From IMG/VR virus record IMGVR_UViG_3300025896_000025: a stretch of DNA of 64,000 bases; one strand, given 5' to 3'. A program made the translations under genes and the position numbers. Every line of letters starts with the position of its first letter. The stretch's first letter is position 1. The notes below the pieces were generated by a model. That model did not search any database, was not told the origin of the DNA, and saw nothing but the letters and a program-made list of their open reading frames with translations. Source of the DNA: an uncultured virus (IMG/VR IMGVR_UViG_3300025896_000025) (taxonomy: Duplodnaviria; Heunggongvirae; Uroviricota; Caudoviricetes). Positions 3,995-64,000 of the stretch are shown one piece after another.

Positions 3995-4112
3995 TTACGT
4001 CCCAGTCAACCCTTGCGGCCCCAGAGACCGTATTTTGTAATAAAGAACCTTGTTTGTAGAAAGATTATTACTATATTAGGTTTATACAACACGTATTATT
4101 AGAGAACTCTCC

Positions 4113-4781
4113 ATGGACATTACGACGCGCAGCGAAGCGATAAGATTGGGTTTGGCCCATTACTACACCGGGAAACCGTGCAAACACGGCCACTTGTCAC
4201 TTCGTCGGGTAGTTGGGGGCATCTGCCTCAGTTGCCACAGTCATAAGAAAGAGAACGGTTACTTTCAGGAAGCGGGCAAGAAATTCAGAGACCTGAACCC
4301 TGATTACGCTAAAGAATATCGGACGAAGCAGAAAACTAAGGATTCAAACAACACCCCCACAACGGGTGAACAGAGACTACTTAATTGTAAGAAGAAACAG
4401 AAAGAGTGGCGACAAAATAACAAAGCTAGAGTTCGTGATAAGAACAAAGAGTGGCGTGATAGCAATGCAGAGAGACTACTTACTGCAACAATTATTCGAA
4501 CATATCGTATAGCTCTTGCGACACCAAAATGGGTTAATGTTGACGATATTATTAGGCTTCACCTTTCAAAGACTGAGGATCAGCAGCTCGACCACGGCAT
4601 TCCATTAGCTCATGACCTTGTATGCGGACTTCACGTTCCGTGTAACCTTGATTTAGTTCCTGCTAATAAAAACCGAGCAAAATATAATCACTTCGATCCT
4701 GATGAGTGGTCGTACTCAGAAGCAGAGAGTAGATTTGTTCGAACGATACTTCCCTCCGCTCCCGATTATGACGAAGATTAG
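4113..4781 (+). CDS. HNH homing endonuclease
   Basis: N-terminal YYTGKPCKHGH...CLSC; C-terminal DHGIPL...VCGLHVPCNL...N; AT-rich and opposite to its neighbours. Confidence 0.85.
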   Translation: MDITTRSEAIRLGLAHYYTGKPCKHGHLSLRRVVGGICLSCHSHKKENGYFQEAGKKFRDLNPDYAKEYRTKQKTKDSNNTPTTGEQRLLNCKKKQKEWRQNNKARVRDKNKEWRDSNAERLLTATIIRTYRIALATPKWVNVDDIIRLHLSKTEDQQLDHGIPLAHDLVCGLHVPCNLDLVPANKNRAKYNHFDPDEWSYSEAESRFVRTILPSAPDYDED

Positions 4782-25964: not shown

Positions 25965-26029
25965 GAATAGTTGTTTGATTGAGATTAGGAACTAACTGAA
26001 GAGTTGGATTTGAACCAACCGTTGGATTG

Positions 26030-26767
26030 ATGATGGATCTGATTAGTAGGGAAGAGGCTCGGGAGAAAGGACTGAAGAAGTTCTATACAGGCGTGCCTTG
26101 TAAGAATGGACATGACTGTGAAAGATATGTTGGTCGTAGTACGTGTGTTCAATGCGCTTCTGGCCGTACGCACAAGTATTATCAGGAGAACAAGGAGGTT
26201 ATCAACGATAGATCTAAAGAATGGTCTCGTAACAATCTAGATAAAAAGAGAGTATACGGCAAAAGAAGTAGAGATAAAGACCCAGAAGCTTATGCTGCAC
26301 GTCGTAAGGCTTGGAGACTGGCTAATCCAGAAAAACTAGCACAGCGGGCGGCCAACAAATCACTAGAGTATAGAGAGAAGCATAAGGCCGACTGTAAGCG
26401 TCGATATCGAGAAAACGAGGCCCGCTACAAAGAACAGTCGAAGATTTGGTACGAGAATAACAAGGAACAAAGCTTACAGAAGCAGAAAGAGTGGGTAGAT
26501 AACAATCGTGGGAAGATTCGTGAGTATTCGGCTGCACACAGAGCCGCTAAGCTAAACCAATGTCCAACTTGGGCAGATCGTGCCCCTATACTAGAATTCT
26601 ATCGAAATTGCCCGGTTGGTTATCACGTTGACCACATTATTCCGTTACGCGGAAAGATTGTCAGTGGGCTCCACGTTATATGGAACCTTCAATATCTTCC
26701 AGCGATCGAGAATCTTAGGAAGAAGAATAAGTTCGATCCCGATGTCTACGCTCATGTATACCCCTAA
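26030..26767 (+). CDS. HNH homing endonuclease, related to 4113-4781
   Basis: FYTGVPCKNGH...CVQC; HVDHIIPL...GLHVIWNLQYL...N. Confidence 0.9.
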   Translation: MMDLISREEAREKGLKKFYTGVPCKNGHDCERYVGRSTCVQCASGRTHKYYQENKEVINDRSKEWSRNNLDKKRVYGKRSRDKDPEAYAARRKAWRLANPEKLAQRAANKSLEYREKHKADCKRRYRENEARYKEQSKIWYENNKEQSLQKQKEWVDNNRGKIREYSAAHRAAKLNQCPTWADRAPILEFYRNCPVGYHVDHIIPLRGKIVSGLHVIWNLQYLPAIENLRKKNKFDPDVYAHVYP

Positions 26768-28330: not shown

Positions 28331-28641
28331 GAAGCCTCTCCCAGCCTGACGCATGGTGTTGGGCATTTGACACCGTACCCTCCAGACTCAACGAGCTCAA
28401 ATGGTCCTATAGTCTGGAGGACCTACGGTTCAAAACCAAGATGAGGTTTCAGGAAGAACAAGTCAGAGCGGTACAGGATTACGAGAACCTGATCCTCGTC
28501 GTCAGTCAGGCACTAGGAGGGAAGCCCAAGAATAACTCTCCTGATCCATCAACGGTGTTACAGCCCAAGAATGCAAAAGAAGCAAAATCAATGCTGCAGT
28601 CCGTCATGTTTCCGGCACAGACTAAGATCATAAATGGCTAA
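27953..28641 (+). CDS. Tail chaperone G-T fusion via programmed -1 frameshift
   Basis: T TTT TTA heptamer at 28243-28249; the -1 frame is open from 28240 through the 28441-28641 ORF. Confidence 0.8.
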
Positions 28642-31600: not shown

Positions 31601-33558
31601 GATCGCAAGGTCCGCGAGGATCTGGTCAAGGTTCTCGATCAGCTCCGTGGTGCTCTGTCGCAGCAGAAGGCCAACGAGCTCACCGTAGGTAGACTGACGG
31701 CACAGCAGAGCCAGCAGAACCTCATCAAGAAGGTCGGGCCCCAGGTCGAATCTGCCTTCGCGTACAGCGAGACCTTCACCCAGACGGAGACGGAGAAGCG
31801 CCTCAAGGGTGTGAAGGACAGCACCCAGCGTGACCAGATTGCCAAGGAGATCAAGGAACAGGCGGGCAGGGTACTCGCTGGTGTGATCAAGGGCATCGTC
31901 GACGATCTGAATCCTGATGAGCTCAAAGACTTCCACACGGTCTACGACAACCGGTTGAAGTCAGCCCGTGTTCAGATGACCGCCAAGTATGAAGCCGTCA
32001 TCAAGGAGAACCAGGACGCCCGCGAGAAGGTCAACGACCTGGACATCCAGACCCTCAACGACGAGATCGCCATTCGCGAGAAGATCCTGTCGAGCACCAA
32101 GGATGGAAAGAAGCGTGAGGCCCTGAAGAAGGACATCATCGCCAGAATCAAGCGCAAGGAAGAGCTTGAGCTAGAGGCGCTGAAGACCAACAAGGATCTT
32201 TTGGACGCCCCGACCAATCTACAGGAGAGGGCCAAGGCCAACATTCGGGCGCAGACCCAGGCAGCGATCGATGAGGTCAATCATCGTGACACTCAAGCGG
32301 CTAACCGTCCTACTCGCGCCAAGTACGAGTTCAAGTCTTTCCGTGATAACGAAAACAGAGCCACGAAGGACGCTCTTGATCAGGTCAATCAGGCCAAGGA
32401 TCGAGAACTCTTCCGCGCCGGCCAACCTTCGCAGCAGAACCAGTTTCGTATCGGTTCCTACGATCTGCTCCGCAACCAGGGGAAGATCACCGATAGTCAG
32501 AGGACTGAGGCAGCCAAGCAACAGGAACTGATTGAAACCCAGCGACTGAAGGAGGTAGCACAAATTGAGAATGAGCGACTGCTTGCCCTCACGAAGGTTC
32601 GTGCGGAAGCACAGCTTGAGTACGAGAAGAAGCTGGCAGAGTTCAATCAACTCAACGCAGAAGCTCAAAGCTTCAACGGCACCAAGGAAAAGGGCGACGA
32701 GCTTCTGGCCCTGCGGGACAAGGCGGGTCGTGAAGCCGAGGCATTAAACACCACCATCGAGTAAACACCACCATCGAGAAGTCTCAGGAGCAGGTCACTG
32801 AGGCTATTCAAAAGACCACCGATGCTCAGTCTGAGTATAACGCCCGCCTAGCTGAGACCAAGGAACTGACCGCTGGGCAGGCGATCAAGGGTGGCCTCGA
32901 TGAGTTCGCTCGTCAGGAAGGTCTCTTCGATAGTGCTGCCGTCAAGATTGAGAAGACGATGGTTACCATCGCTGGATCGGTCAGGGATAACCTCGCTGGT
33001 GCATTCACTGATGTGGTCACCGGTACCAAGTCCATGGGCGAGGCGTTCAAGGATTTCGGTAAGAACGTCATCGATACTTTGATCCAGATCGCTGCACAGC
33101 AGGCTGCCAATGCCTTGATAGGTCTCCTCATCGGCTCAATCGGTGGGGGAGGTGGTGGAACTACCCAAGCAGCTACCGCCATCCTGCAGAACGGCCAGCC
33201 TCGTTGGAATGGCGGCAAGATCCGAATGGCCGGCGGGGGTAAAGTCCCCGGCAGCCTGAAGACCCGTGACAACGTGAATGCCTACCTCGCTCCTGATGAG
33301 TGGGTGGTCAACTCCTCGGCAGCGAAGTCCATCGGTGACAAGAAGATGGGAGAGATCAATCAGAAAGGCGCTGCCGCCCTGAGCAATAACCCCATCCCGG
33401 CCATCGTAGTCCCTCCCGCTCCAGCACCCGTCAACGTCTACGCGGTAGGGCAGGATCAGGTGCCGCCGCCGAGTGCCAACGACATCATCGCAATCATCGG
33501 CAATGACATCGCTCGTGGCGGCGTCACCAAGAAACTCATTCATCAGGCGGTTCGCTAA
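28634..33558 (+). CDS. Tape measure protein, interrupted by a 17-nt tandem duplication
   Basis: TP901-type core (LSQAGFS...LLATAS...GIRSGSTLGTGFR); removing one copy at 32745-32778 fuses the two ORFs into 1635 aa. Confidence 0.85.
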
Positions 33559-40347: not shown

Positions 40348-41118
40348 ATGAGACGGGTTGCGCAGGTTGGTATTGAACTCATTAAGGCGTACGAAGGACT
40401 GGGCGACGGTGATCCATCAACCGTCAACCTTGATCCTTACCTGTGTCCGGCCGGGATCTGGACTATTGGCTGGGGTCACACGATTGTCGACCCTAAGACT
40501 GGTAAGCGACTAACCAAGGCGAACTGCACCAAAGAGGAAGCGTTCGCTCTCTACCCCGGCGGTATCACCAGAGAAGAGGCTGAGCTTCTTCTCAATGAAG
40601 ACCTGAAGCCAAGAGAGGAGGTGGTCCAACGTCTCGTGAGGGTTGAACTGAATGACAATCAGTTCGCCGCTCTAGTCTCCTTCGTGTATAACGTCGGAGC
40701 CCCCGCGTTCCAGATATCCAAGCTTCTAAAGAAGCTGAACGCGGGGGACTTCGGCGGAGCCGTTGCTGAGTTCCCAAAGTGGAACAAGATTACCACAGAG
40801 AATGGTAAGGTTGAGAACAAGGGTTTGACCAACAGACGAGAGGCTGAGCGCATGCGCTTCGTCACTCCGTTGTTCAAGGCCCCCATCCCGGTCAGTAAGA
40901 CCCCAGAAGGTCAGGGCCAAATCCTGGCCTCTGTCGGTATCGTGGGTAGCGCTCTGAGTGAGATGACTGATAGTGTCGGCGTTGCCTACACACAGTTGCA
41001 CTCCCTAGGTATTGAAATCGAGTATATTAAATTTGCCTTCGTAGCGCTCACATTGTTCGGCGTGGCCTACACATTTTACTCTCGGGTCAAGGCCCGCAAT
41101 GATAAAGGATCACAATAA
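40348..41118 (+). CDS. Endolysin, GH24 lysozyme with a hydrophobic C-terminal extension
   Basis: YEG...YLCPAGIWTIGWGHT, NQFAALVSFVYNVG, GLTNRREAE. Confidence 0.9.
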   Translation: MRRVAQVGIELIKAYEGLGDGDPSTVNLDPYLCPAGIWTIGWGHTIVDPKTGKRLTKANCTKEEAFALYPGGITREEAELLLNEDLKPREEVVQRLVRVELNDNQFAALVSFVYNVGAPAFQISKLLKKLNAGDFGGAVAEFPKWNKITTENGKVENKGLTNRREAERMRFVTPLFKAPIPVSKTPEGQGQILASVGIVGSALSEMTDSVGVAYTQLHSLGIEIEYIKFAFVALTLFGVAYTFYSRVKARNDKGSQ

Positions 41119-46308: not shown

Positions 46309-46468
46309 TAGACTGACCTGCTAACTTTCCAGCTTGGCGGTTGTTTATAGCTTTACAGATACCGTGATTTTTGAAATGACCCATAGGACGGACTTTCCAC
46401 AAAACGATCCCCGTCTCTAGGTCATACTCAAAACATTCACGAAGAAACTCCTGCGTTGGGTCGGTCAT
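46289..46468 (-). pseudogene. Truncated HNH homing endonuclease remnant (N-terminal part only)
   Basis: Hand translation MTDPTQEFLRECFEYDLETGIVLWKVRP..HF...AGKLAG; stops at 59 aa with no HNH core. Confidence 0.6.
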
Positions 46469-49400
46469 ATCTCACAACCTCCACTGGTGCAGGCAAGCGT
46501 TTGGGAACCTACGGTCTTATCCTCTCCTCCTTCGTAGACACTCATCCAACGGAAATCGATCTCCTTTGGCATCCTCTCTAGCAACGCTTCGTATTCCTCC
46601 TTTGTGCACTCCTGGTACGGGGCCTGTCGGTAGATGTGGTCAGTGTGGGGCAGAAAGCTTACGCCAGTGACATCATCAAACCGAGCGTACACCCACGCAC
46701 CCACCTCCAGCCACTCGTGCTCACGAACTGTGATGGTCACCGAAGGAGTGTGCTCACACCAGTGAGTCTTGAACTTCAACCACATCTCTAACTGCTGGAT
46801 CGCAGTCATATCATCTCGTGTTGTGGAACCGGCGGAAGCCTTGCGAGGAAACGAAAAGATCGTCGTGTCATTTGGCTTCGTCACACAAGGCTCGTTCGGG
46901 AAGCTTTGGTCCTTCATGAACTCCGTCATTGGGTCTTTGTTGTCTTGACGCACGGTCCTCACATAATATGAAGCGAAGTCGGCGTGCATACCAGATGGGC
47001 TATAAACTAACTGGGATGTCGTCCCCTCAGGCTTCACGCACGTAGTGGCCGTGCTTTGTGGAATCCCGAGTTCCGAGGCCATGCGCTTGTTACGTGCGAC
47101 CACACCTGAGCGCAGATCTGACAGAGCCTCACCCGAGAAGTCGCGTATAGTGCTTCCCATGATCCCGGTGAGGGAGACACCTAGAAGACGCTCCTCCTCT
47201 GTGTTGCGCTGCCAGACTTTGCGAAGATACTTGAAGTTCGTGAGTGTGCTCTGGAAGGTCCCAAGGAGGGTCGCCATCTCCGTCTTCCAGGACAGCGAGA
47301 CGAAGTCATCTTCCATTCTACAAACAGTGGTTGAAAGATTACAGAACTGATTAGGTCTAAGTAGGATTTCTAGGCAAGGATTAGATCCCCATTCATGATC
47401 TGGATCTCGTCGGTCTGTCCTAAGTATCTGCTTTCTTGCCGCTTCTCTATTGAAGATACCCCGCTCGCCGCTCTTGGATTCATAGAGTGACAACCACTCC
47501 TTCATGAAGAGACCGATCTCTGGCTTCTCCGTGTATGCAACCGAGTTGTTTGCCAGAGATCGCTGAGGCTCACTCTCCCACCATTGCCCGGACTTAGCGT
47601 AGCGCATGCGGTCGTCGCTGAGGTTCGAGAGAGATAGGAGGGCACTGTTGTGCACAACGATACCACACGTTGTAAATTGATGAAGTTCCTCTACCTCAAT
47701 ATCCCAGGTCTCAACCTCACCCCACGGCTCCACACTAACCACCGGAGTCGGTAGATACCCATTAGGGTTCATCTCCAACGCAGAGGCTGTAATATTATTC
47801 ATAGCCCGATATCCCGAACGTCCCCCAATAAATGCTACGGGAAACGTAAAGTCTATAGGACTGCCGAAAGCGTCGATATCAACCAATTTACCCGTTCGGA
47901 TGTGTGGACTAACGAGATCCAGCCACTTCTTACGGTTAAGTCTGCCGACGATGAACAGTCCGTGAGCGTCCTTGGCTTTCTCACCCGCAGCGCGTCGCCT
48001 ATCGTTGCAGGTAAAATGACGAGAACACCCTATACCCAATGATGCTAGAAGAACTACAAGGTCGTCCTCATACTCCGGGTAAATTGTTGTTACCTGTTCA
48101 ATTACCTTGTCTTTACGTGAGCGTCCGTCGCTATCAAACAATCCAGCCAAATACGCCGACCTGATCGGTTGCAAGGCGTTCATTATAAACTCTGGAACAC
48201 GTATGGGCTCATTTGGCACCTTAAGATGCGTCTTTAGCCACCGAGCAAACGGGGCCGAGAACACACGGAGACGTGCGCCATTACCTTCTCTACCGTCTGA
48301 ACCATAAGCGCCACTCAGACCAAAACAATCTTCGAAGATAATGTTTGCTTCTTCCAAGGTTTCTAGATGATCGATGTGATGAGCAATCTCAATCGTCTGA
48401 TCACCTATGTAGCCGTTTCCGTGAATCAATCCAAACAACCAAGCTACGCGAGGCGTCAGCTCCGGGATGTTGAAGATCTTTGAATTGAAGTGAAGGACTT
48501 CATCAAACGCCGGTAGTTCCGTGTGTTGACCTTCATATCCTGCACCGTCCCATACCAGTCGATCGCCAACCTTGAGATCTGCTGCGGCCTTGAATGCGTA
48601 TGAGTCGACGGCATTAAACACTGCAACTCGGTGCTCTGGTGTGCATGCAAGCTCACCGAAGCGGTGTTTAATCTTCAAGATTGCTTTTTTACCAGACGGA
48701 CCTGATGCAACAACCCTGGCGGTTTTACCGCCAGTAACTACCACATCCCCCGGCTCCACTTGGCTTATAGGCTTGGTCCCGGTGGTTAAAGCTACCGGAG
48801 CGTCTGACGGCAAACACCGTCTCACACCCCCGACCACAACGATCTCACCGATCTTGCACATGAGATCGTGGCATTCCAAACTGCTCAACCTACGGCCATG
48901 CGCGTCACGAAACTTCTTAACGGTGAAGCGGAACAGATCGTCGAGGGGAGCTGGCCCCGAGGCTCGCCCACCGAATGTCTTCAGGGGAGCCCCAGCAGGG
49001 CGCACCTTGCTCATGTCCCAGGCGGGGATCTGTCCAGCATAGAGCATCGCAATGAGCTCTCGGTATGCCTTGGACCAACCTTCCTTGCTGTCGTCCACCA
49101 CGATGGTGGTGCTGCTCTTCTCGAAGCTCTCAGCTACTGATGGGAGCTGAGCCACACACTGACGCTCGACGGAGAACCCAACCCCAGTACCACACATCAG
49201 AATGTACATGGCCTCATCGAAGGCCCTAGGGTGGTCAATCGGAACGTAGGCACAGTTGTAGCCGGCGACGTTACAGCGAGCCAGAGCAGGGCCAGCAGTC
49301 ATCAAAGCTCGCATCGAGGGTAGGAAGTGGAAGTTCTCGACACCCTCCTGGAGCTCGGAACGAAGTGACGGACTCAGAGTGTATTTGCATTTCTCTTCGA

Positions 49401-49521
49401 GATGATCCTGGAAGAAGTCAAAGTATCGTGTAACAGTCTCATTCCAAGTTTCACGACGGCCAAGATCCGGTCTCCATCGAGCATAACGGCTCTGATGGAT
49501 CATGTTTTGAAACAGGTCCAT
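46465..49521 (-). CDS. nrdJ: Class II (adenosylcobalamin) ribonucleotide reductase, intein-containing
   Basis: LPSMRAL, YNC, GTGVGFSV, FGGRASGP, VVGGVRR/SAL, NPCLE, FCNL, CVKPEGT, C-terminal CTSGGCEI. Confidence 0.92.
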   Translation of the reverse strand: MDLFQNMIHQSRYARWRPDLGRRETWNETVTRYFDFFQDHLEEKCKYTLSPSLRSELQEGVENFHFLPSMRALMTAGPALARCNVAGYNCAYVPIDHPRAFDEAMYILMCGTGVGFSVERQCVAQLPSVAESFEKSSTTIVVDDSKEGWSKAYRELIAMLYAGQIPAWDMSKVRPAGAPLKTFGGRASGPAPLDDLFRFTVKKFRDAHGRRLSSLECHDLMCKIGEIVVVGGVRRCLPSDAPVALTTGTKPISQVEPGDVVVTGGKTARVVASGPSGKKAILKIKHRFGELACTPEHRVAVFNAVDSYAFKAAADLKVGDRLVWDGAGYEGQHTELPAFDEVLHFNSKIFNIPELTPRVAWLFGLIHGNGYIGDQTIEIAHHIDHLETLEEANIIFEDCFGLSGAYGSDGREGNGARLRVFSAPFARWLKTHLKVPNEPIRVPEFIMNALQPIRSAYLAGLFDSDGRSRKDKVIEQVTTIYPEYEDDLVVLLASLGIGCSRHFTCNDRRRAAGEKAKDAHGLFIVGRLNRKKWLDLVSPHIRTGKLVDIDAFGSPIDFTFPVAFIGGRSGYRAMNNITASALEMNPNGYLPTPVVSVEPWGEVETWDIEVEELHQFTTCGIVVHNSALLSLSNLSDDRMRYAKSGQWWESEPQRSLANNSVAYTEKPEIGLFMKEWLSLYESKSGERGIFNREAARKQILRTDRRDPDHEWGSNPCLEILLRPNQFCNLSTTVCRMEDDFVSLSWKTEMATLLGTFQSTLTNFKYLRKVWQRNTEEERLLGVSLTGIMGSTIRDFSGEALSDLRSGVVARNKRMASELGIPQSTATTCVKPEGTTSQLVYSPSGMHADFASYYVRTVRQDNKDPMTEFMKDQSFPNEPCVTKPNDTTIFSFPRKASAGSTTRDDMTAIQQLEMWLKFKTHWCEHTPSVTITVREHEWLEVGAWVYARFDDVTGVSFLPHTDHIYRQAPYQECTKEEYEALLERMPKEIDFRWMSVYEGGEDKTVGSQTLACTSGGCEI
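47647..48816 (-). mobile_element. Intein (390 aa) with LAGLIDADG endonuclease
   Basis: VRR|CLPSDAPV...CTPEHR...FGLIHGNG...LAGLFDSDG...IVVHN|S. Confidence 0.93.
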
Positions 49522-54245: not shown

Positions 54246-56215
54246 AGCCTTATGTACGAATCCGCGAGTGGATCCTTGTGTGACACAACGAAGATCTGTG
54301 CAATGCTACCTGTCAGCGACCGGATAGCTTCAGCCGTACTCTCACTCCATTCTGCATCTAGGGCCTCATCGAACTCATCGAGTGCAAGGAAGGGAAAAGC
54401 CCGACAAGTCAGGATCTGACCCAATGCAATCCGCAAAGCGATGTTGGCAATCGCCTTCTCTGCACCGCTCAGTGTGCGGACCGGCTGGTTATCAACGAAC
54501 AAGTCGAAGTCGTCGTTGACCAATACTTCCGTGCGCTTTCCTCCAGTCATCTTCCACAACAGGGAGGAGGCTACCCTGGACAGGGCAGGGACGAGATAGC
54601 TCTTCACCTTTGCGCGCAACTCGTCAAGGGCTGCCTTGACCTTGCGCCAGTTGGCCTCGCTGCTGCGGAGCGCAGTCACCTCAGCGAGCTTGGTATCGTA
54701 GAGGGCCTTAGCCTTGGTGTAGTTAGCGAGGTCCCTCTCATAGGCGCGGGCCAGTTCGAGCTCGACCTTCAACGTGGGAAGGTTCGAGGTGAGGGGTTTC
54801 AGCTCCTCCAGTCGCTGTTCCTTAGTTGCGCGTTCAATGAGATATTGCGCGTAAGCCTCGGTTGCTTGCGCATAGGTCTCTTGCGCGATCTGATAGATGT
54901 GCAGAGCACGAAGATCGGGCGACCTATCGACTGGGATCACGAAGCTGGCAAGCTTGGTGGTGAGCTCAGCGCGCTCCTTCTCAAACCTAGCGTTGTCGAT
55001 GTCCTTGCGGGTGAACGGTGGTGAAGTTAATCTAAACGGACCCTCATCCAGTGCCAGCCATACGGGATCTTGTGAGAGAGTGTTCCAGTTTTCGATTCGA
55101 CGGACATTCTCGTCTATCTGGCTTCGAGTGAGTTCAGACCCTGACTTAGTTGTGGGTAAGGGACCAAGGAGTTCTAGCTCCTTTCGCATTTCGTCAACGT
55201 GACTGCCGCTGAGATCGAAGCCACAGTTTGGGCAGCCTTTGAAGTGAGCTTCAATGTCACGCTTAAGGCTGTCGCGCTTATCAATTTTCAGGTTGGTCTC
55301 GGAGTCCTCGATGTCCTTCTGACTGCACAGTGCTACAGGATTGCGACGTAGAAAGGTATCTCTCTCCTGCCACCTGTCCCACGCATCGAGCTGAGCCTCA
55401 GCGTCCTCTGGGAGAACGACCTTCGGTGCCGGCGGCAACCTCTTCAGACTGGCTTCCACAGCAGCCCGCTCTGCGACCACAGCAGCGCGGGCAGAGACCA
55501 GGGCCTCGAGCTCGTCTAGGCTTTCTGTGAAGGCGGGCCTGACGGGCTCCACAGGGGGGCTACGGGGCACAGAGAGCCAGCCCTGGAGCTGGCTCATCTC
55601 GTGAACGAGGGCTTCAAGGTTGTTTACGTGCTTCTCGATTAGATGACTAATACGGTAGCCCTCTGGCCTACTCGGCTCTACCGGCTTGACCAGGACACCC
55701 TCAAGAGCCTCGGCGCGCGTACCCTCGTCCTTGGCCTGATCGTTCGCCCACTTACCGAGCTCGACAAGAAAGGTCATGCCCGACACATTATCGACCATCT
55801 GCTTCCGCTCTGACGGAAGCATGGAGGAGAGGGCCGCGATGTTGCCCTGGTTGACGGAGCACGCCACATCGAAGACATCTAGGGGGAAGCCTAGGATCTC
55901 AACGATCTTCGCGTTGACGGCCTTGGTCCCGACTGCGATCTCGATTCCATCACGATAGAGGACAGCTCTGGTCCCGTTACGAAGAACGAAGAGAGTGTCC
56001 CAGTAGAGTTCCACCTTCAGGTTGGAGTAGTCGGAAGCCTGTCCACGGAGAGCCTTTGATCCATAGAGTGCATAACGTATCATCTCCACAATCAGAGTCT
56101 TGCCCCTGCCGTTGGCACCGACTATGGCAGTCATACCAAGATCAAAGGTCAATTCGTTTGAAAGGGTCTTCCCCGTGGAGGGGAAGGTGACTTCATACTT
56201 TAGGGATCTGATCAC
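54242..56215 (-). CDS. Rad50/SbcC/gp46-like ATPase
   Basis: GANGRGKT, CPNCG hook, LSGAEK signature, LALDE, VSH. Confidence 0.9.
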   Translation of the reverse strand: MIRSLKYEVTFPSTGKTLSNELTFDLGMTAIVGANGRGKTLIVEMIRYALYGSKALRGQASDYSNLKVELYWDTLFVLRNGTRAVLYRDGIEIAVGTKAVNAKIVEILGFPLDVFDVACSVNQGNIAALSSMLPSERKQMVDNVSGMTFLVELGKWANDQAKDEGTRAEALEGVLVKPVEPSRPEGYRISHLIEKHVNNLEALVHEMSQLQGWLSVPRSPPVEPVRPAFTESLDELEALVSARAAVVAERAAVEASLKRLPPAPKVVLPEDAEAQLDAWDRWQERDTFLRRNPVALCSQKDIEDSETNLKIDKRDSLKRDIEAHFKGCPNCGFDLSGSHVDEMRKELELLGPLPTTKSGSELTRSQIDENVRRIENWNTLSQDPVWLALDEGPFRLTSPPFTRKDIDNARFEKERAELTTKLASFVIPVDRSPDLRALHIYQIAQETYAQATEAYAQYLIERATKEQRLEELKPLTSNLPTLKVELELARAYERDLANYTKAKALYDTKLAEVTALRSSEANWRKVKAALDELRAKVKSYLVPALSRVASSLLWKMTGGKRTEVLVNDDFDLFVDNQPVRTLSGAEKAIANIALRIALGQILTCRAFPFLALDEFDEALDAEWSESTAEAIRSLTGSIAQIFVVSHKDPLADSYIRL

Positions 56216-56216
56216 G

Positions 56217-56736
56217 CTAAAACATATCCTTCCTTTTCCAATGTGTCGTCAACCGCTTCCGTATCTGTTCCAGCGTTACCGGAGCGAAATCGAAGTTATC
56301 AACCCCAACATCCACACACTGACTATCTCCTGCAAGCGTGCCGTGGGAGTGTCCGTAGAAGTGCAGCGCCCCACGATGAGAACAGTTCCATACCTCAAAC
56401 TTGTAGTGACAGAGAACGATAAGTTGTCCGTTCAGCTCTAGCTCGTGATAGTGACCCAGAAGCTCGACGTTGCGCTCGACCTGGGATCGGCTGTCGTGGT
56501 TACCCCAAAGGAACTTGATGTTTCCATTCAGACGATCGGTATACCGGTGTGCTGTCTTAAACGAGAAGTCACCTAAGTGATAGACTGTATCATCAGGCTT
56601 AACCCGCCTTAACCCGCTCATTCCAATTGTTGATCATTGTTCTATCCATCTCCTCCGCAGAGGAGAATGGACGGTTACAATACTTGATGATGTTAGCGTG
56701 ACCGAAGTGGGTATCTGCGGTGAACCAGATGGTCAT
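56217..56736 (-). CDS. Metallophosphoesterase, interrupted by a 10-nt tandem duplication
   Basis: [13 protein letters not shown]...[18 protein letters not shown]...GNHD...GHSH; CTTAACCCGC x2 at 56598-56617; 169 aa when repaired. Confidence 0.85.
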
Positions 56737-56928
56737 TACCAACCCCTCCAAATCTCATAAAGGATTAATCCACTGACTACCAGCATAGCCACCACAATCA
56801 CCATTAATAAGAGACCTATGATGATCACAGGAGGTACACCAGCAAAGCACCAGCCGCAGCTCCCGCCACGAAGATGAAGGCTACACCGGCTAGGATCTCC
56901 TCGGTAGAGGGGATATGAATGTCACGCA

Positions 56929-57906
56929 TCACCGACTCCTCAATTCTTGATACTTGTCTCTAACCAACATTCCGATACCCTCGTCGATGTCCACTAGGCT
57001 CTCCTCCAACAACCGGTCCAGATTGAACTCATCCATCTGAACCGAGATGTCTTCCTCCTCAACACCTGCCTTCTTCAAGGTGAGTTGCAGACAATCGATG
57101 TCGAAGTCCAGCTTCTCTCCAGGGCCGAGTTCGATCCGAAGACATTTGTCGTGGTAGCGAGAAGGATCAGCACGTACGGTATCGAGATCGCGGGTCACGT
57201 AGAGTCTTTCATCAGGATCCTCCGAGTGAGAGTAAGGCTGCATCGAGCCGACTACGTTGATGGTGACACCGTCTCTGGTCTCGATGCGTGGGAGGTGGTC
57301 GTGGCCCCCGTAATAGGTAGTGATCCCGAGCTCAGCCATTAGCTTCGTTGGGATCATGTTATGTGGATCACTCAGGGGGTGAATATCAAAATGTGCACAC
57401 AGGGTGTCGATCCCTCGGTTGAGTGAACGAACCATCTCCTCAGCGGTCTTCACGGGATGCCAAGGAACGAACCCAATCCTCAAATCCTTCCGGCTATCGT
57501 TTGTCGTAAAGGTGATAACCTCAGGCTCCTCGATCACTCTGATATTCGGAACCGAAGCGACGATAGCTTTAAACACATCAAACCCGGAGCGCTTCTCCAG
57601 GTCTTTGTGTCGCTCGTGATTACCAGCGATGACGATGAACTGCGTGTATCGTCGATGCTTCGCTGCCCACAAGTATGTCTCTGCGGTCTGAAGGATCAAC
57701 TCAGTTGGGACATAAGGCTTATCAAAAAGATCTCCTAGGTTGATGTGAATATCGAACTCGTCATTCCACATAAAAGACTTACGAAAGGTCTCCATTTGTG
57801 AGGCTTCCCGCTCACCACGACGGTGAAGCGGGACGCCATTCTTGAAGGTCTTTCCAATGTGTGGATCGCCTAGGAGCTTGATGCTCAAGCCGTTGATGTT
57901 GATCAC
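56929..57906 (-). CDS. Mre11/SbcD/gp47-like nuclease
   Basis: GDPH, GDLFD, GNHE, GHDH, VGS; near the Rad50-like gene. Confidence 0.85.
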   Translation of the reverse strand: MININGLSIKLLGDPHIGKTFKNGVPLHRRGEREASQMETFRKSFMWNDEFDIHINLGDLFDKPYVPTELILQTAETYLWAAKHRRYTQFIVIAGNHERHKDLEKRSGFDVFKAIVASVPNIRVIEEPEVITFTTNDSRKDLRIGFVPWHPVKTAEEMVRSLNRGIDTLCAHFDIHPLSDPHNMIPTKLMAELGITTYYGGHDHLPRIETRDGVTINVVGSMQPYSHSEDPDERLYVTRDLDTVRADPSRYHDKCLRIELGPGEKLDFDIDCLQLTLKKAGVEEEDISVQMDEFNLDRLLEESLVDIDEGIGMLVRDKYQELRSR

Positions 57907-58069
57907 GTCACCTTCCGATTTGCGTATTCAATGCACTTAGTAAGTCCCACATCGAATAGGAAGCAACCTAGGGTCATCGCAAGGGCATATGTCCATGTAA
58001 GTTCGACTGGGATCAGGATCAGACAGGCTAGTGCCGTACAGTAGCCGGCCCAAAAGTGTATTTTCAGAT

Positions 58070-58567
58070 TCACGTAGACCTCTCCAAAACCATTGGCTTA
58101 TCTTCAACCGGAGGTTGCTTCTCTGGCATCTGCGGCTGCGGTAGATCGTAAAACCTAGGAACACTCGGATCCAAGCTCATCTCGAAGGGTAGCTTTACCA
58201 TTGCTCCCTTCTTGCCGGATTGTGCCGACTTGGCTTCAGCCTTCTGTAACTGCTCTGCTGCCTGTTCATTCCAAGGGAGCACGTAAGACATGGGCTCGAC
58301 CTCACCAGGAAGGAGGATGTAAACGAAGATACCGACCCCCTCCCGGATCACAGAGCCTACCACCAAGGCTTCCTCGACACGGGGCTTGGCCCACTCCAAC
58401 CGCACTGGCTTCGGCTTACCCATAAGGGAGGAGACTGCACCGTAGGAGACGGGAATGAAGAGAGCAACGAGGAGAAGGATCGGGATCACACGCTTGGAAA
58501 ACGCACATCCGAAAGCAGCTACGGCGATGAGGAGAGTAAGAGAGATGAGGAAGTAGGGTGTGATCAT
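58070..58567 (-). CDS. Membrane protein (two TM helices plus soluble domain)
   Basis: Hydrophobic N-terminus, MGKPKP, EPMSYVLPW. Confidence 0.7.
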   Translation of the reverse strand: MITPYFLISLTLLIAVAAFGCAFSKRVIPILLLVALFIPVSYGAVSSLMGKPKPVRLEWAKPRVEEALVVGSVIREGVGIFVYILLPGEVEPMSYVLPWNEQAAEQLQKAEAKSAQSGKKGAMVKLPFEMSLDPSVPRFYDLPQPQMPEKQPPVEDKPMVLERST

Positions 58568-58569
58568 GA

Positions 58570-58764
58570 CTACAGATCCTTCAATACTGTTTGCTCAATG
58601 GTTTCAGTAACCTTTTCCTTGATGATGAGCCTCACTCGGAACCTCGACGGATGTGGACCACCTACAGTCCCCTCTGAGATCACAATCCGATCCGCAAACA
58701 GATGAAGATTGATAAGTTCCATCGCGCGCTTCAAAGCTTCACGTTCTACGGAACCTAGTGTCAT
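58570..58764 (-). CDS. Small hypothetical protein
   Basis: ATG 58764, MTLGSVERE... Confidence 0.5.
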   Translation of the reverse strand: MTLGSVEREALKRAMELINLHLFADRIVISEGTVGGPHPSRFRVRLIIKEKVTETIEQTVLKDL

Positions 58765-58981
58765 CGCTTCCCACCCCGAGTTACTCTGCAAGTAATCTTC
58801 GGTTTCGTACCACTGAGAACCGCAGCAGATCCAACTGCAATACACCCAATGAGAAAGATACTAGCAGCTAGAGCCAAGCCCACCAGAACGGAAGCGTGAC
58901 CAGCCACCAGCTCCAATCAATGTAACCTGTAAGTTTGAGGCCAACAAACAGAACCCCAAGAAGCCCTATCACCACGTTCAT
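58761..58981 (-). CDS. Small membrane protein (LKLTGxIxWSWW family), apparent 1-nt frameshift
   Basis: Stops at 37 aa as written; the -1 frame continues hydrophobic (VGLALAASIFLIG) to a TGA overlapping the next ATG. Confidence 0.55.
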
Positions 58982-59580
58982 TTAACTCGTCCCTTATACG
59001 TCCTGAGTTCAGTCTGCAACTGGTCGACACTGCCCTTAACGAGCTCACCCTTATCATCGAGCTCGAAGCGGAACACAGTAACCTCCTTGCCTTCAGCGTC
59101 CATCTTGACCTCACTCATCAGGATCTTCTTCATCGTTCCGTTGGTCTCGTTCTTGACACTGACGAAGACCTTGACAGGAACAATCGCTACACCCGCGCGA
59201 TTTCGGTAGAAGTGCAGGTTGACGATATACCTTCCGGCATAGACCCCGCGTGAGTAGGCGTTCTCGTAGTTCAGACCACTAAGATCGAGCATGTTCCCGA
59301 GGTCATCGCGGAGGAGATTGAAGATGGCACCTCCCTTGTTCGAGTAGCCTACCGGCACATCACCCGGTGCTTGGACCCAGAGATCAATGTCCGCGTCCAT
59401 GGAAGGCGGCCAGATGACCTCGACGGACACAACACCGGGTGGCGAGCTTGTGTCATCCTTCTCTGCCTTGGCTTTGGGGTTGACCAACGGGAGAGTGAAG
59501 AAGGCAATCATGATAGCAGTTACCATCATGAGGAACAGCATATCAGCAAAGATGATGGCGTTCCGTCTGGAGCTAAACAT
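58978..59580 (-). CDS. ExbD/MotB-like TM anchor plus YfaP-like periplasmic domain
   Basis: FADMLFL... TM helix with Asp; W...DIDLWV...D..G...EN...GRYIVNLHFY. Confidence 0.65.
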   Translation of the reverse strand: MFSSRRNAIIFADMLFLMMVTAIMIAFFTLPLVNPKAKAEKDDTSSPPGVVSVEVIWPPSMDADIDLWVQAPGDVPVGYSNKGGAIFNLLRDDLGNMLDLSGLNYENAYSRGVYAGRYIVNLHFYRNRAGVAIVPVKVFVSVKNETNGTMKKILMSEVKMDAEGKEVTVFRFELDDKGELVKGSVDQLQTELRTYKGRVK

Positions 59581-59758
59581 CTCGATGGACCTCTACACAT
59601 TGATGATAGCCCAGCCAATTAATGATCCAAAACATGGTCGGGTTCACCAGCAAGTCCGTCAATACGAAGTGGCCTGTAGCTAGGTAGCCGATGCCATAAA
59701 CGACGACCCCTATGCCCCACCACCAAATTAGTTCGCGCAACCAAGGAAACGGCTTCAT
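59573..59758 (-). CDS. Small membrane protein
   Basis: 61 aa, hydrophobic; overlaps both neighbours. Confidence 0.55.
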   Translation of the reverse strand: MKPFPWLRELIWWWGIGVVVYGIGYLATGHFVLTDLLVNPTMFWIINWLGYHQCVEVHRDV

Positions 59759-60294
59759 GCTGCCACCTCTGAGTTACGGATGTCGAAGGCACGAGAGTTC
59801 AAGATGTAGAGATCAGCAGCGAGCCACAGAGCCAGGGAGGCACCAACCATGGACTTACCGAAGCTTGCAATCGTCTCCTTCAGGAACTCTGCCATTGCGG
59901 GTGTAGCTGAAGCCGCATCGTTCAGAAGGCTCGGATCCAGATGGGAGGCTGCGATGATGATACCCACGAAGGTTCCGATCATCCCGAGCATGGCAACCTC
60001 GGTGGACAGCCAATAGGGGAGGGACATCATGTGGTCGAAACGCTCCTTCAGCAGCGTGTTCTTATCCACACCGTGGTGGACAGCCAGGGGGATAGCCTCC
60101 CAGCGGGACAGCCTCCATGATTTGATCCAACAGTCGATGAGACCTACTAGAAACAGGGCGACGATTCCATAGACGACGTAAGTGTTATCGTCCCTGAACA
60201 GTGGAATCAACCACCCAGCCCAGTAAGCGGCGAAGAGGAACCCGAACCCCGCGATGTTGAGCAGGGAGGTGTAGGCGAAGCAGAGACTACGCAT
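59755..60294 (-). CDS. MotA/TolQ/ExbB proton-channel family protein
   Basis: Four hydrophobic segments; MLGMIGTFVGIIIA signature. Confidence 0.75.
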   Translation of the reverse strand: MRSLCFAYTSLLNIAGFGFLFAAYWAGWLIPLFRDDNTYVVYGIVALFLVGLIDCWIKSWRLSRWEAIPLAVHHGVDKNTLLKERFDHMMSLPYWLSTEVAMLGMIGTFVGIIIAASHLDPSLLNDAASATPAMAEFLKETIASFGKSMVGASLALWLAADLYILNSRAFDIRNSEVAA

Positions 60295-60940
60295 CTTTCG
60301 TTACCTTGCTAAGGGTTGACTTAACATAAAAGACAAGCTTTATCTGATAGAGGGCATCGAACAGGGCGTTGTGCGCCGTTCCTTCCATTGGACACTCTCT
60401 ATACACTGAGTTAACGTCCATATTGCCCCGAGCGCCTTTGATGAAACTCATCAGGTCGGTGGCATGTCTGTGGGAGAATGGTGATGGTATGCTGTAGTCA
60501 TGTAGGTAGCTCTCGATGAACGCACTGTCGAAGCTAATGGGCTTAGCCCAGAATCTCAGGGGTTCGCTGTGCCCATAACCAACCCAGTCAGCGAAGTCCT
60601 GCATCACGGTACGAGGATCTTCCGCCCTACGCATGATGTCTTCATAGACGTCTTTACGCTTAGACCACCAAACCCTCGTTTCTGGATCCCAGTATCGATG
60701 GGGTGGCATGTGCATGGATCGGTTAAAGAAACCTCCGTCTACAGTCTCGTTCTCATAGTTGAACTTGACCGCACCGATTTGAATAATGGCACATCGATCT
60801 GGACGTAGACCTGTGGTCTCAATGTCAATTTGGATATCAGGAAACTCTACCACTGGAACTGACCCATTTCTGTCCAAGACAACGAGTTCATTCCCGCGTC
60901 TTTTGTTAATACACAGTATGAGAAGGGAACCTTGTACCAA
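60287..60940 (-). CDS. DEDDh 3'-5' exonuclease (true start probably near 60850)
   Basis: IDIETTG...IIQIGAV...FD...HNALFDA. Confidence 0.85.
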   Translation of the reverse strand: MVQGSLLILCINKRRGNELVVLDRNGSVPVVEFPDIQIDIETTGLRPDRCAIIQIGAVKFNYENETVDGGFFNRSMHMPPHRYWDPETRVWWSKRKDVYEDIMRRAEDPRTVMQDFADWVGYGHSEPLRFWAKPISFDSAFIESYLHDYSIPSPFSHRHATDLMSFIKGARGNMDVNSVYRECPMEGTAHNALFDALYQIKLVFYVKSTLSKVTKDA

Positions 60941-61266
60941 GTATCGCTCAGCAGATTATGCACGTAGATCATGTAGGTACCAAGGGCAGCCGTGATCTTA
61001 ACGGCGGCTGCCCATTGGTCCTTGCTCAACATGCTAAATCGGAAAGCGCGTGGGTCCTGGGTGGACTTCACCTCGGCGAATTGAACCGCTCCGTTGTGGA
61101 CAACCAGGAAGTCGGAAGGGAGGGGCGGAAGCTTGAACCTTTTGCCCCCATTTATCCCGAACAGGTCGCTCATATCGCGGAACCTGTAGACGTAACACCG
61201 CTTACCAAGCTTTCGGTATCGAGTTACGAACGCTGCTTCACTGGCTTTACCGGAGTTCCTGCTCAT
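60847..61266 (-). CDS. PD-(D/E)xK Holliday junction resolvase-like protein
   Basis: GKASE...PSDF...FAEVKST. Confidence 0.7.
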   Translation of the reverse strand: MSRNSGKASEAAFVTRYRKLGKRCYVYRFRDMSDLFGINGGKRFKLPPLPSDFLVVHNGAVQFAEVKSTQDPRAFRFSMLSKDQWAAAVKITAALGTYMIYVHNLLSDTWYKVPFSYCVLTKDAGMNSLSWTEMGQFQW

Positions 61267-61289
61267 ACAAGGAAGATAGTGGTAGATAG

Positions 61290-61320
61290 AAGTTTAGGAA
61301 GGGTTTGTTATAGTATCAAG
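61290..61320 (-). promoter_or_regulatory. Sigma70-like promoter
   Basis: Minus strand TTGATA-17 bp-TAAACT upstream of the resolvase gene. Confidence 0.5.
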
Positions 61321-61528
61321 AAACAACTTTAAATTCTTTTCTGGTCTCAGCTATCTGCCTCTGTCGATAGGCTACTGCATCGTCGAGCTCGTCGTCCGAG
61401 TAGTCGTCCAGACTACCCTCATCATCGTCGCTCAACTCCTTCACCATCGCTTCCAGATCCACCGTCTCGATACCAGGAGTGTTCATCAGACGGAGGAGCT
61501 GCTTCAGTTCGTGGATCGAAAGTTCCAT
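61316..61528 (-). CDS. Small acidic protein
   Basis: ORF track. Confidence 0.6.
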   Translation of the reverse strand: MELSIHELKQLLRLMNTPGIETVDLEAMVKELSDDDEGSLDDYSDDELDDAVAYRQRQIAETRKEFKVVS

Positions 61529-61604
61529 GGATAGAGATCTCTCTTGCTGTGGATTCCTGAGCCAAGATTTAGCAGTTTCTGTTGTTCTGTCGAGAGTTCG
61601 TTAT

Positions 61605-61856
61605 CTAATCAGGAATGCGATATTCGAACAAATTATCTTTCTGGTTCAAGGTTTCTAGAGCCTGGGCACGAGCTTTCTCGGTGTTGTACCGAGTCCAGTA
61701 GGTTCTCCATCGATGAAAGAACCCGGTGACACGAATCTTACTATCTCGAAGCCGTAGTCGATACTCAAGTACAAACTTCTTCGTTCCCTTGGAATGTCGG
61801 GGGGGTTTGGGCCATTCATCCGTTTCAAGTGGTGGTTTCAAGCGGCTCGCTTCCAC
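61605..61856 (-). CDS. Small basic protein
   Basis: ORF track. Confidence 0.5.
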   Translation of the reverse strand: MEASRLKPPLETDEWPKPPRHSKGTKKFVLEYRLRLRDSKIRVTGFFHRWRTYWTRYNTEKARAQALETLNQKDNLFEYRIPD

Positions 61857-64000
61857 TCTTCTCTTCCCTGCATGAGGTAATCAACCACATCCTGGACCCC
61901 AGCATCGGTCAACCGTCCGGTCTCACGAACCCCAGGGAGTTCTGGGCACTCATAGAGCTCGATCTGCCCAAATGGTGCCTTGGTTCGGTGCCATGGCTCG
62001 AAGCTCAGTCCGATCGAGGGGCTTGCATCGAGCTTCATGACCTTGAAGATGTCTGGGTGGGAGCACATGATCTGATGAACCTCCTTTACGACCTGAGGTA
62101 CTAGGCTATGGTGAGCACTGTATATAAGCTCATCATGGTTTGGGAGCATGAACCTAACATCACGCTTACTCCAACCTAGTGCCTTAAACCTATCCTCAAC
62201 CCGAAGAATGGACCGCTTGGCGATCGTACTGCACGTACCCTGCACTAGAGAATTGACCGCCTGATTCTTAGCCCGACGCTGGATCTTATTGGCGATCTCG
62301 TTCCAGAATGCTTGAACACCCTGGTTGTTGAAGTGAGCCATCTTAGCGTTCCACAAACGGCGCCATTCGTGTGTGGCTTCAAACCGTGTGCGTCGGTGAC
62401 CATCAGGGAGTTGCACATACCCATCAGTCATACACTTGTTGATAACATCATCGCGCCACTGCTTTGCTACTTGGAATTTCTCCCAAAACAGCTCAGTGGC
62501 AGCCCACATCTGCTCAGTGGTCCATCCTAGGCGTTGCCCTACGGTTGATAGAGCACCACTATAATACGCATTAAAGTTGGCCCCCTTGCCAATTTCTGTG
62601 CGCCAGTAGGAGTACGCTTTCCCTGGCTGCATCATCTCCCCTTTGATATTTAGGAGGATGCCAGGGTTGATGAGGTCACAAGCTTCTTCCTCACACATCG
62701 AGGGTAGACGCTTGAACAGATCCAAGGTGATATCTGGAAACTTCACCTTCAGAACACTGGCAGCAGCACCAGCGTGTAGGTCCTTGTGAGGTAGCTGACC
62801 AAAAGCTTCGACGAAGCTGGGGTCCTGGGAGAACTCTCCAATCTCCACCAGCTCGATACCGGACCAATCTAAAGAGACAACGATGTGATCATCGTAATCA
62901 CCCTGATAGAAGCCACGGACATAAGTTCCATCGCCACGTTTACTGAGCTGATTCCCGTTGGGTGCTGACATAGCCATGCGGCGGGAAGCCAGTTTGGATG
63001 TCAGGACCGGATACATTCTCAGGCTCTCAGGATCTGTAAGCTGTTCATAGGGCGTGAGGAACAGCTTCATCCTGGTATCGATGCTTGCCATCTCGGTAAG
63101 CGCGGACACGATCTTGAGGGCTGCGGGATTCGTCAGTTCCTCACGGATCTTACCACGGGCCTCACCATCAGAGCTTGTCTTACCATCCGAGATGATGAGC
63201 TTAGCTCCGATCAGATCGTAAAGGAGCACGCGCTGCGGCATATAGTGCGAGAAGTTCGGTCCATCAGGCTGCTTGACCGACCGTTCGGTGGCCCAGGCAT
63301 TAGGGACAGCACCCCTAGCTCGCAGCGCCTCAGTGAAATCGTCCGAGGAACTGTCCAGAAGCGCCCAGCTTTCGATAGAGGACCGATAACCCTTCGAGTT
63401 TTTTGCATACCAAGCGTCGCGCTCAGCAAGAGATTTGTTCGGGATAGTGGGAAAGGGTAGAAGCCCTCGAATGCCTTCACGTAGCGTCCTCAACGCAGCG
63501 GCATAGTTTGACCGCTCTTCATCTCGCTTGCTCTTGATCTCCTTGAGATTGACAGACAGACCCTCCTTCCACACATTAGCGTAGATGGGCACCATACGGT
63601 TCTCGGTATCGATGAAGGTCTGGACCAAACCAGGGTTCACCTTCATCATCTTATCGAGCGCTGCATGAAAGACCTTCACACACCAGAAAGCGTCGTCACA
63701 TCCGTACCCAACTACCTCATCACCGGTTAGTTGACGCATACCAGAGCGCTTACCCAGCACCTCTTAATACGTGACCATTGAATAGTTGAAGAGTGACTTA
63801 ACACATTTCTTGAGAGCATATCCGATGCAGATATCACGGACATAGCCATTATAGGAAAACTTCGCCTCAGACTCCTTTGCCGTGATCTTGTTCATCAACT
63901 CTATTTGAGCGACTGTCAGACTATCACGGTTACCATCATATGTACTCGCAAGACGAAATAACTCAGGTAGGAGTGCACCAATGCCACCCAAACCAGCAGC
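61838..64000 (-). CDS. Family A DNA polymerase, 5' part outside the window, with an in-frame TAA at 63764-63766
   Basis: YGCDD (ExoIII), LDWSGIEL (motif A), R...KGANF...Y (motif B), VQG, NHDEL (motif C); the two track ORFs are in the same frame. Confidence 0.9.

Follow-up and report, generated by a model that had tools for sequence, protein, structure and literature searches.

A 64,000-nucleotide (nt) stretch of an uncultured Caudoviricetes genome (IMG/VR record IMGVR_UViG_3300025896_000025, referred to below in its full length as the window) was found to carry three genes, designated A, B and C, a real feature that probably represents a previously undescribed variant of the 5:2 class of ion-driven membrane motors, present here as a phage cassette. 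The interpretation that we favour, with a probability of roughly 0.6, is that the three products are subunits of an undescribed compact motor of this class with an envelope-directed function during infection. The three genes, with product lengths in amino acids (aa) and transmembrane (TM) helices, are as follows.

59755-60294, minus strand: A, 179 aa, minimal four-TM subunit assigned to the MotA/ExbB superfamily; contains LGMIGTFVG
58978-59580, minus strand: B, 200 aa, stator-like subunit; FADMLF in the TM helix, followed by DIDLWV and GRYIVNLHFY
58070-58567, minus strand: C, 165 aa, third conserved subunit with two N-terminal hydrophobic helices, detected with the C-family hidden Markov model (HMM)

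The initial annotation had placed here a phage-encoded module of ExbB/MotA-like and ExbD/MotB-like membrane proteins, and the motifs on which it drew (LGMIGTFVG, FADMLF, DIDLWV and GRYxVNLHFY) were all present in A and B. The third conserved member of the module proved to be C. No paper describing the trio was found in the literature searched. Non-flagellar MotAB homologues have been classified, with mention of DUF appendages (PMC12505986); in the passages of that paper that were available, the trio family is not mentioned and the word ‘sandwich’ does not occur.

Conservation of the A-B-C trio

Fifty-seven loci, two from genomes and 55 from IMG/VR, were chosen by the presence of B and compared using HMMs built in this analysis. 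B was detected in 55 of these loci, A in 49 and C in 51. The usual arrangement, with all genes on the same strand, was A immediately upstream of B and C downstream; the exceptions were L002, in which C was convergent, and L016 and L024, in which it lay upstream. Most of the gaps in the counts for A and C are explained by contig ends and by divergence of A. Thus, L028, L038, L056 and L057 were cut by contig or locus ends, and the loci that lacked C (L017, L023, L028 and L030) were cut off on the side where their relatives carry it. In the L029-L034 group, the loci without a match to A (L029, L030, L031, L033 and L034) had four-TM open reading frames (ORFs) upstream, and those of four of the five (L031 left out) corresponded to a divergent A (hhalign 94 %, E 1e-7).

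A sample of 401 Pseudomonadota genomes supplied 13 more bacterial loci, which contained A (13/13), B (13/13) and C (12/13) in the same order, and the trio was also present in the cultured phages 16-3 (p038, p040 and p042) and RHph_TM3_3_14B (genes 011, 013 and 015). The trio travels together in this order, usually as overlapping genes, in phages and in bacterial chromosomes. Practically all complete loci among 55 viral contigs, 15 bacterial loci and the two cultured phages had the genes together and so arranged. Since dozens of unrelated loci contain the A, B and C families jointly and in one order, the feature is beyond chance. The conserved co-occurrence anticipated in the initial annotation was therefore borne out in viral, bacterial and cultured-phage loci. 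The module is no phage invention, the trio being common in bacterial chromosomes.

A syntenic relative of the window, L009, has the compact gene order resolvase, exonuclease, A, B, C, SbcD and phosphoesterase. Identity between the two was 58 % for the resolvase, 58 % for the exonuclease, 32 % for A, 46 % for B, 42 % for C and 45 % for SbcD, so that A diverges faster than its neighbours. This shared synteny indicates that the trio predates the split between the window phage and the L009 phage and has been kept since.

Sequence and structural relationships of the three proteins

A is a membrane protein of the MotA/ExbB superfamily that has been cut down to four TM helices; superfamily membership follows from profile matches at the family level together with alignment of the window lineage to the rest of the family. 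The MotA/ExbB model PF01618 was matched at E ≤ 0.01 by 35 of 37 A-family members, and orthologues from a Geminicoccaceae metagenome-assembled genome (MAG; L001, 32.0 bits) and a Nealsonbacteria MAG (L002, 23.1 bits) scored above its gathering cut-off of 22.9 bits. The profile match proposed initially thus stands for the family and not for the window protein taken alone, which scored 16.4 bits (E 0.008) over residues 101-145 only. Window A also gave weak, sub-cut-off matches to ZorA and PomA models (NCBIfam and PADLOC), and only three of 5.8 billion clusters were closely related to it. Its lineage aligned with the other 48 A-family members over 159 columns (hhalign 99.8 %, E 2.9e-30). When the A-family profile was compared with the PDB, ZorA (2.9e-7), MotA (1.5e-6), PomA, TolQ and ExbB made up 23 of the 24 matched sequences. 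The alignment with PomA covers TM1 to TM4, and identity to known motors is ~15-25 %. The loop between TM2 and TM3 is ~35 aa long in window A (~10-35 residues in the family), leaving almost no cytoplasmic domain, and the protein ends directly after TM4. LGMIGTFVG lies in TM3 and includes T108, which would correspond to the ion-path threonine of the G-x-x-G-T helix in ExbB, TolQ and MotA; where a second such threonine would be expected, in the last TM helix, the T-T-L of the family is K-S-M in window A.

Homologues of B formed more than 4030 clusters, many of them on bacterial contigs of up to 527 kilobases (kb). The protein has a short basic N-terminus (SSRRN), one TM helix, a linker of ~15 aa and a predicted periplasmic β-sandwich at residues ~50-193. 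An aspartate at the cytoplasmic end of the TM helix (Asp13) was present in 22/22 and 36/36 sequences; in the full set of 56 B sequences one row had serine at this position and one row was partial. The AlphaFold2 (AF2) model of B, with a predicted local distance difference test score (pLDDT) of 74, contains a helix at 3-33, a short linker and a β-sandwich at 50-193. B had no match among the Pfam, PHROG, NCBIfam and PADLOC models, and residues 1-45 had none in the PDB with phmmer. The best PDB match of the B TM profile was the TM segment of MotB, in which the aspartates were aligned, at a non-significant E of 2, and a profile of B gave nothing meaningful against PDB sequences (best E 0.62). The likeness of B to ExbD and MotB rests on architecture and not on demonstrable homology.

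The periplasmic domain of B is distantly homologous to the YfaP/DUF2135 domain. B domains aligned with 13 extended DUF2135 domains from Pseudomonadota over 121 columns (hhalign 97.4 %, E 1e-11; 98.0 % in global mode), and the alignment included the D-x-D-L-[WH]-V strand, an acidic loop and the G-x-Y-x-V-x-x-x-Y strand. The YfaP-like domain suggested initially is in this respect upheld by profile alignment; the Pfam DUF2135 model (PF09906) itself did not match B at E ≤ 1, nor did it match genomes G002 and G003, which carry B homologues, in a search with a positive Escherichia coli control. This model consists of 48 positions and represents the second half of the domain only. The sandwich of B resembles the domain of DUF2135 proteins such as E. 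coli YfaP across the aligned columns and their motifs; DUF2135 matches in the 13 loci lay in open frames of ~290-1300 aa, longer than B. DUF2135 and PPC clusters were the nearest named ones to B in the ESM Atlas (0.83), which is taken as a lead only, and no paper mentioning DUF2135 was found in the literature searched. Foldseek with the B model retrieved no PDB entry at E ≤ 0.001, the best being the TerD-like structures 2qng and 2qz7, and a wide structural search had as its best rows the jelly roll of Tk-SP, at Z 6.5, and TerD, at Z 6.3 and 5.9. By analogy with TerD, the acidic residues of the sandwich possibly bind Ca2+. An ExbD/TolR fold or an OmpA-like periplasmic domain was considered for B and was ruled out by the all-β sandwich and its DUF2135-type relation.

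C comprises a TM helical hairpin (residues 4-23 and 27-49), a small α/β domain (~66-140) and a proline-rich tail of ~25 residues ending in a conserved PxxP-x-K, of which P-x-K is nearly invariant (AF2 model, pLDDT 89.5). According to the positive-inside rule, applied to the C family, the loop between the helices would be cytoplasmic and the domain periplasmic. No Pfam or NCBIfam family model matched C, those of TonB and TolA included, and Foldseek and a wide structural search returned nothing more specific than helical hairpins of a generic kind and a small barrel like that of eIF5A (Z 6.3), with no nameable family. At E ≤ 0.001 the C profile retrieved 3459 representatives, of which 1746 remained at E ≤ 1e-10, and among the 150 best matches listed nearly all were stand-alone proteins of 150-180 aa. 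C is a separate family, conserved as strongly as A and B; wherever the C-family HMM matched, in 51 of the 57 loci and 12 of the 13 bacterial ones, the gene neighboured B. Assignment of C to the TonB/TolA class of transducers was rejected: that class is characterized by a single TM anchor, a long spacer and a TonB_C or TolA domain, and C has a hairpin, a domain of ~75 residues and a tail of ~25 residues.

Locus layout, carriers and genomic neighbours

In the window, the three genes belong to a translationally coupled run of seven minus-strand ORFs between a 3'-5' exonuclease gene and a gene for an SbcD-like nuclease. The remaining ORFs of the run and the two flanking genes are as follows.

60287-60940, minus strand: 3'-5' exonuclease, flanking gene (family scans)
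59573-59758, minus strand: s1, hydrophobic 61-aa ORF rich in Trp and Gly, located between A and B (ORF list)
58868-58981, minus strand: s2, 37-aa single-TM Trp-rich ORF between B and C (phrog_1374)
58570-58845, minus strand: o91, 91-aa ORF starting at GTG, or 64 aa long if read from an internal ATG (ORF list)
57903-58073, minus strand: s3, 56-aa hydrophobic ORF between C and SbcD (ORF list)
56929-57906, minus strand: SbcD-like nuclease, flanking gene (family scans)

The tight minus-strand run between DNA-metabolism genes was thus confirmed as it had first been drawn; two of its ORFs had not been listed, namely o91 and, just outside the original start of the region, s3. From the exonuclease to SbcD the successive junctions measure -8, -4, -8, -4, +22, +2, -4 and -4 nt. 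Accordingly, s1 overlaps A by 4 nt and B by 8 nt, s2 overlaps B by 4 nt and s3 overlaps its neighbours by 4 nt on both sides. Family scans gave the surrounding gene order as DNA polymerase A, resolvase, exonuclease, the run, SbcD, phosphoesterase and SbcC. Promoter-like and terminator-like sites in 56000-64000 did not exceed the counts in shuffled sequences. Because of the overlapping junctions and this lack of an excess over shuffles, the run reads as part of one long replication/repair operon.

None of the four small ORFs (s1, s2, o91 and s3) had a homologue in any other trio locus except L003, which is identical to the window; for s1 the comparison took in 57 other loci. Only s2 matched a family, phrog_1374 (E 2.2e-10), which comprises small phage membrane proteins. 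o91 had neither a family match nor a hydrophobic segment at the TM threshold used; it is probably soluble and its reality as a gene is less certain. In contigs of related phages from wastewater runs, position 58533 was joined to 58990, so that s2 and o91 were skipped (run X8); in another related contig (run X7) 59590 was joined to 59753 and s1 was skipped, a weaker case at 80 % likeness. The four ORFs are lineage-specific and lie outside the conserved module, s2 being an insertion between B and C, and the small membrane proteins that the initial annotation had counted as components are accordingly removed from it. Another gene inserted into the cassette was seen in RHph_TM3_3_14B (L059), where a Seg-like homing endonuclease is annotated between A and B (3258-4016).

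The positions of the trio in phage genomes are unrelated to one another. It lies within replication genes in the window and L009, between the tail sheath and tail tube genes in L051, beside UvsY on one side and a helicase plus a late sigma factor on the other in L055, and ahead of the small terminase in L042 and L046. In the 16-3-like group it follows a periplasmic trypsin-like lipoprotein protease and precedes a DNA-repair exonuclease; these were found in nine and eight, respectively, of 38 non-redundant viral loci, in a neighbour scan that covered 110 of 155 flanking ORFs. The same protease adjoins the trio in 16-3, RHph_TM3_3_14B and the bacterial locus L088. In L008 the cassette is bounded by two large-terminase ORFs (538-1293 and 3262-4011), which match profile positions 266-402 and 424-590 of 807, and it appears to sit inside a split terminase gene.

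The 13 bacterial loci were chromosomal, and none of them had the look of a defence island among the 52 neighbour proteins scanned. Five (L094, L096, L097, L098 and L099) adjoin a HisKA_3 kinase and a LuxR-type regulator, three adjoin a GAF/sigma-54 activator and a metallo-β-lactamase-fold protein, one adjoins an FHA-vWA protein and one a trypsin-like protease. The HisKA_3/LuxR neighbours hint at regulated, perhaps envelope-stress-linked, expression. Two of these five loci also contain a Ser/Thr kinase-Usp protein and a metallophosphoesterase.

A quick tree was built from 60 B sequences after exact duplicates had been dropped, the window being represented by the identical L003. It contained two clades (approximate likelihood-ratio test value 100) and at least five changes of label between virus and bacterium, two of which were on well-supported branches; window B grouped with viral sequences and the Geminicoccaceae copy. 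Searches of 50,697 GenBank phage records with three divergent B queries gave 22, 25 and 29 matches (counts that include GenBank/RefSeq duplicates), all of them in Rhizobium or Sinorhizobium phages with genomes of about 60, 68 and 150-170 kb. Of 401 genomes sampled from the class to which the Geminicoccaceae MAG belongs, 55 contained B, compared with 13 of 401 from its phylum. The window stretch itself was found in freshwater and wastewater metagenomes; none of the datasets listed as containing it is recorded as RNA, and two runs labelled RNA-Seq contained only relatives of it and are probably DNA. Given that the cultured carriers are exclusively rhizobiophages, and given the frequency of B in the class and the metagenome sources, the host of the window phage is probably an alphaproteobacterium. 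Outside this group, the trio is carried by the Nealsonbacteria MAG, which belongs to the candidate phyla radiation (CPR).

The window is a siphovirus-like phage genome with genes for a large terminase, portal, major head protein, tape measure and central tail fibre J, and also for an endolysin (40348-41118), a primase, a ribonucleotide reductase and a thymidylate synthase. Blastn with 57900-60300 found no match among GenBank phages, and B was not found in the nearest virus record (G001), a 43 %-complete fragment. Several other genes in the window are irregular. The phosphoesterase gene downstream of SbcD (56217-56751, minus strand) is broken between two frames: of the homologous protein in L009, which is intact, residues 1-42 align in frame -3 (56611-56736) and residues 41-173 in frame -1 (56220-56606). 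This implies a frameshift near 56606-56611, which may be programmed, mark a pseudogene or stem from an error in sequencing. For the family-A DNA polymerase (61838-63760), the ORF has a GTG start three bases past the stop of an upstream ORF (63764-64000) that runs off the window; this polymerase may be in two pieces, or a stop codon may interrupt it. Of the 2006 profile positions of the tape-measure family phrog_37649, 77-931 are matched by one plus-strand ORF (28634-32764) and 1792-2000 by another (32959-33558), and the gene appears to be split by ~195 nt. Three endonuclease VII/HNH-type, homing-endonuclease-like genes are present (4113-4781, 9993-10883 and 26027-26767), one of them amid the head-tail structural block. 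The ribonucleotide reductase ORF (46465-49521, 1018 aa) matched its family mainly over residues 624-1018 and had a weak helicase-like match at 234-329, so that there may be an insertion or fusion in its N-terminal half.

Proposed mechanism and alternative explanations

To our knowledge, every characterised 5:2 motor (flagellar stator, Ton, Tol, gliding and Zorya) couples ion flow to a known output. The trio resembles TolQ-TolR-TolA and ExbB-ExbD-TonB in consisting of three neighbouring inner-membrane genes that encode, in this order, a channel protein related to PF01618, a protein with an aspartate in its TM helix and a membrane-anchored periplasmic third subunit with a proline-rich stretch. 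It differs from them in that A has four TM helices, as in MotA and PomA, and almost no cytoplasmic domain, in that B carries a DUF2135-type β-sandwich in place of the ExbD/TolR fold, and in that C combines a TM hairpin with a small novel domain and has no TonB_C or TolA domain. With MotA-MotB and PomA-PomB it shares the four-TM topology of A and the aspartate at the cytoplasmic end of the B helix; unlike these stators, it has no FliG-binding domain, no plug, no OmpA-like peptidoglycan-binding domain and no flagellar context, and it has a third subunit. ZorA-ZorB, which is likewise linked to the interface between phages and bacteria, gave the best sequence match to the TM3-TM4 core of A (2.9e-7), whereas the long ZorA tail, the peptidoglycan-binding domain of ZorB and the ZorC/D/E partners have no counterpart in the trio. 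Identification of the trio as Zorya was ruled out by the tail-less A of 179 aa, its scores of at most 17.4 bits with ZorA models whose cut-offs are 250-750 and the fact that nothing else in the run matched PADLOC.

In the mechanism that we propose, a pentamer of A would surround a dimer of B, and ion flow would protonate and deprotonate Asp13 of B, causing A to turn relative to B. The TM hairpin of C would dock on the outside of the A ring, in the manner of TonB or TolA, and its small periplasmic domain and proline-rich tail would pass work to a target in the envelope, while the acidic, possibly Ca-binding sandwich of B may anchor or gate the unit. With so little of a cytoplasmic domain in A, the output is expected to be periplasmic or within the membrane. 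Complex prediction with one copy each of A, B and C gave a score of 0.00 for C as a partner, which is neutral on binding. In the phage, the trio would act on the envelope of the host, for example to stabilize it or to modify it against secondary infection; action on the envelope during infection is considered most likely because the trio sits in the minus-strand replication/repair operon.

A number of observations weigh against this interpretation. Window A falls below the PF01618 cut-off, and its last TM helix contains K-S-M where most relatives have T-T-L. The TM helix of B showed no significant similarity to the ExbD, TolR or MotB profiles, and the fold matches of its predicted sandwich are middling, the best having a Z of 6.5. 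C is anchored by two TM helices and lacks the domains of TonB and TolA, its model has no clear structural relative, and the suggested analogy with TonB and TolA draws only on gene order and the proline-rich tail. An output specific to the outer membrane is argued against by the trio of the CPR bacterium, another difference from the Tol and Ton systems, since Nealsonbacteria presumably have no outer membrane. Finally, some of the ‘viral’ contigs in IMG/VR may be bacterial fragments.

Four alternatives were considered; the envelope function was ranked first, followed by Zorya-like exclusion, a proton-motive force (PMF) leak, a decoy role and a selfish cassette. Under the second of these readings, which we consider unlikely, the trio is a minimal Zorya-like sensor in which A5B2 senses the disturbance of the envelope caused by an incoming phage and blocks that phage, so that an infected cell or a lysogen is shielded from competitors. 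Exclusion genes are common in phages, and the temperate phage 16-3 carries the trio; ZorA provides the top PDB and NCBIfam/PADLOC matches of A, and the trypsin-like lipoprotein protease lies just upstream of the trio in the nine viral loci, 16-3, RHph_TM3_3_14B and L088. Yet A scores no higher than 23.5 bits with ZorA models, for which the cut-offs are 100-750, the ZorA tail is missing from it, and the module contains no ZorC/D/E-like or other PADLOC match. Moreover, the bacterial neighbours are two-component systems, sigma-54 activators and metabolic genes rather than defence genes, and strictly lytic T4-like phages carry the trio between structural genes. A regulated ion channel, in which plug-less A and B would leak protons and tune the PMF (for holin timing or for shutdown of host transport), ranks next and is also doubtful. 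A mere leak would hardly explain why the periplasmic parts of B and C are conserved or why all three genes are so strictly retained, the module is not adjacent to the lysis genes in the window, where the endolysin is at 40348-41118, and free-living bacteria keep the trio in the chromosome; what speaks for a leak is that the B linker has only ~15 residues, with no MotB-type plug detected in the AF2 model or the Pfam scan, and that A is devoid of the cytoplasmic domain by which other motors are coupled to their targets. PMF tuning was already among the roles suggested initially.

That phage A and B are an anti-host decoy, mixing into and poisoning the MotAB, TolQR, ExbBD or ZorAB complexes of the host, seems very improbable. 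As a bare TM core A could in principle co-assemble, and its identity to L009 (32 %, against 42-58 % for the flanking genes) would fit an arms race, but conserved B and C partners would not be needed for poisoning, A is just ~15-25 % identical to the known motors, and self-poisoning makes no sense for the many bacteria in which the trio is chromosomal. Least probable of all is a selfish or hitch-hiking cassette of no benefit to the phage. The variable positions (replication genes, tail sheath and tube, and between the terminase-like halves in L008) and the homing endonuclease between A and B in RHph_TM3_3_14B are what such a cassette might leave behind, whereas in practically every complete locus none of the three frames is broken and the trio has been kept across deep divergence within one syntenic lineage.

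The envelope-directed motor may be extended, tentatively and with appreciably less confidence than the motor itself, to a fourth functional class of 5:2 motors, in which C would be the force transmitter and B a Ca-dependent stator and which would have been traded repeatedly and raise the fitness of phages. Exchange would in that case have taken place between alphaproteobacteria and phages, and unrelated phage lineages of the same hosts would have acquired the trio independently. If this is true, a PMF-powered envelope device might exclude rival phages or hold the envelope until lysis.

The trio would represent a minimal member of the motor class, with two partner subunits outside the described families. 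It is abundant, B numbering more than 4000 clusters and C ~3500 representatives, and its carriers include phages that are open to genetics, such as phage 16-3 of Sinorhizobium meliloti; the restriction of the cultured carriers to rhizobiophages provides a concrete experimental entry. With single copies of A, B and C adding up to ~545 residues, it is also attractive for structural work on force transmission. If a virus makes an envelope machine of its own that is powered by the PMF, this would amount to a novel form of host takeover.

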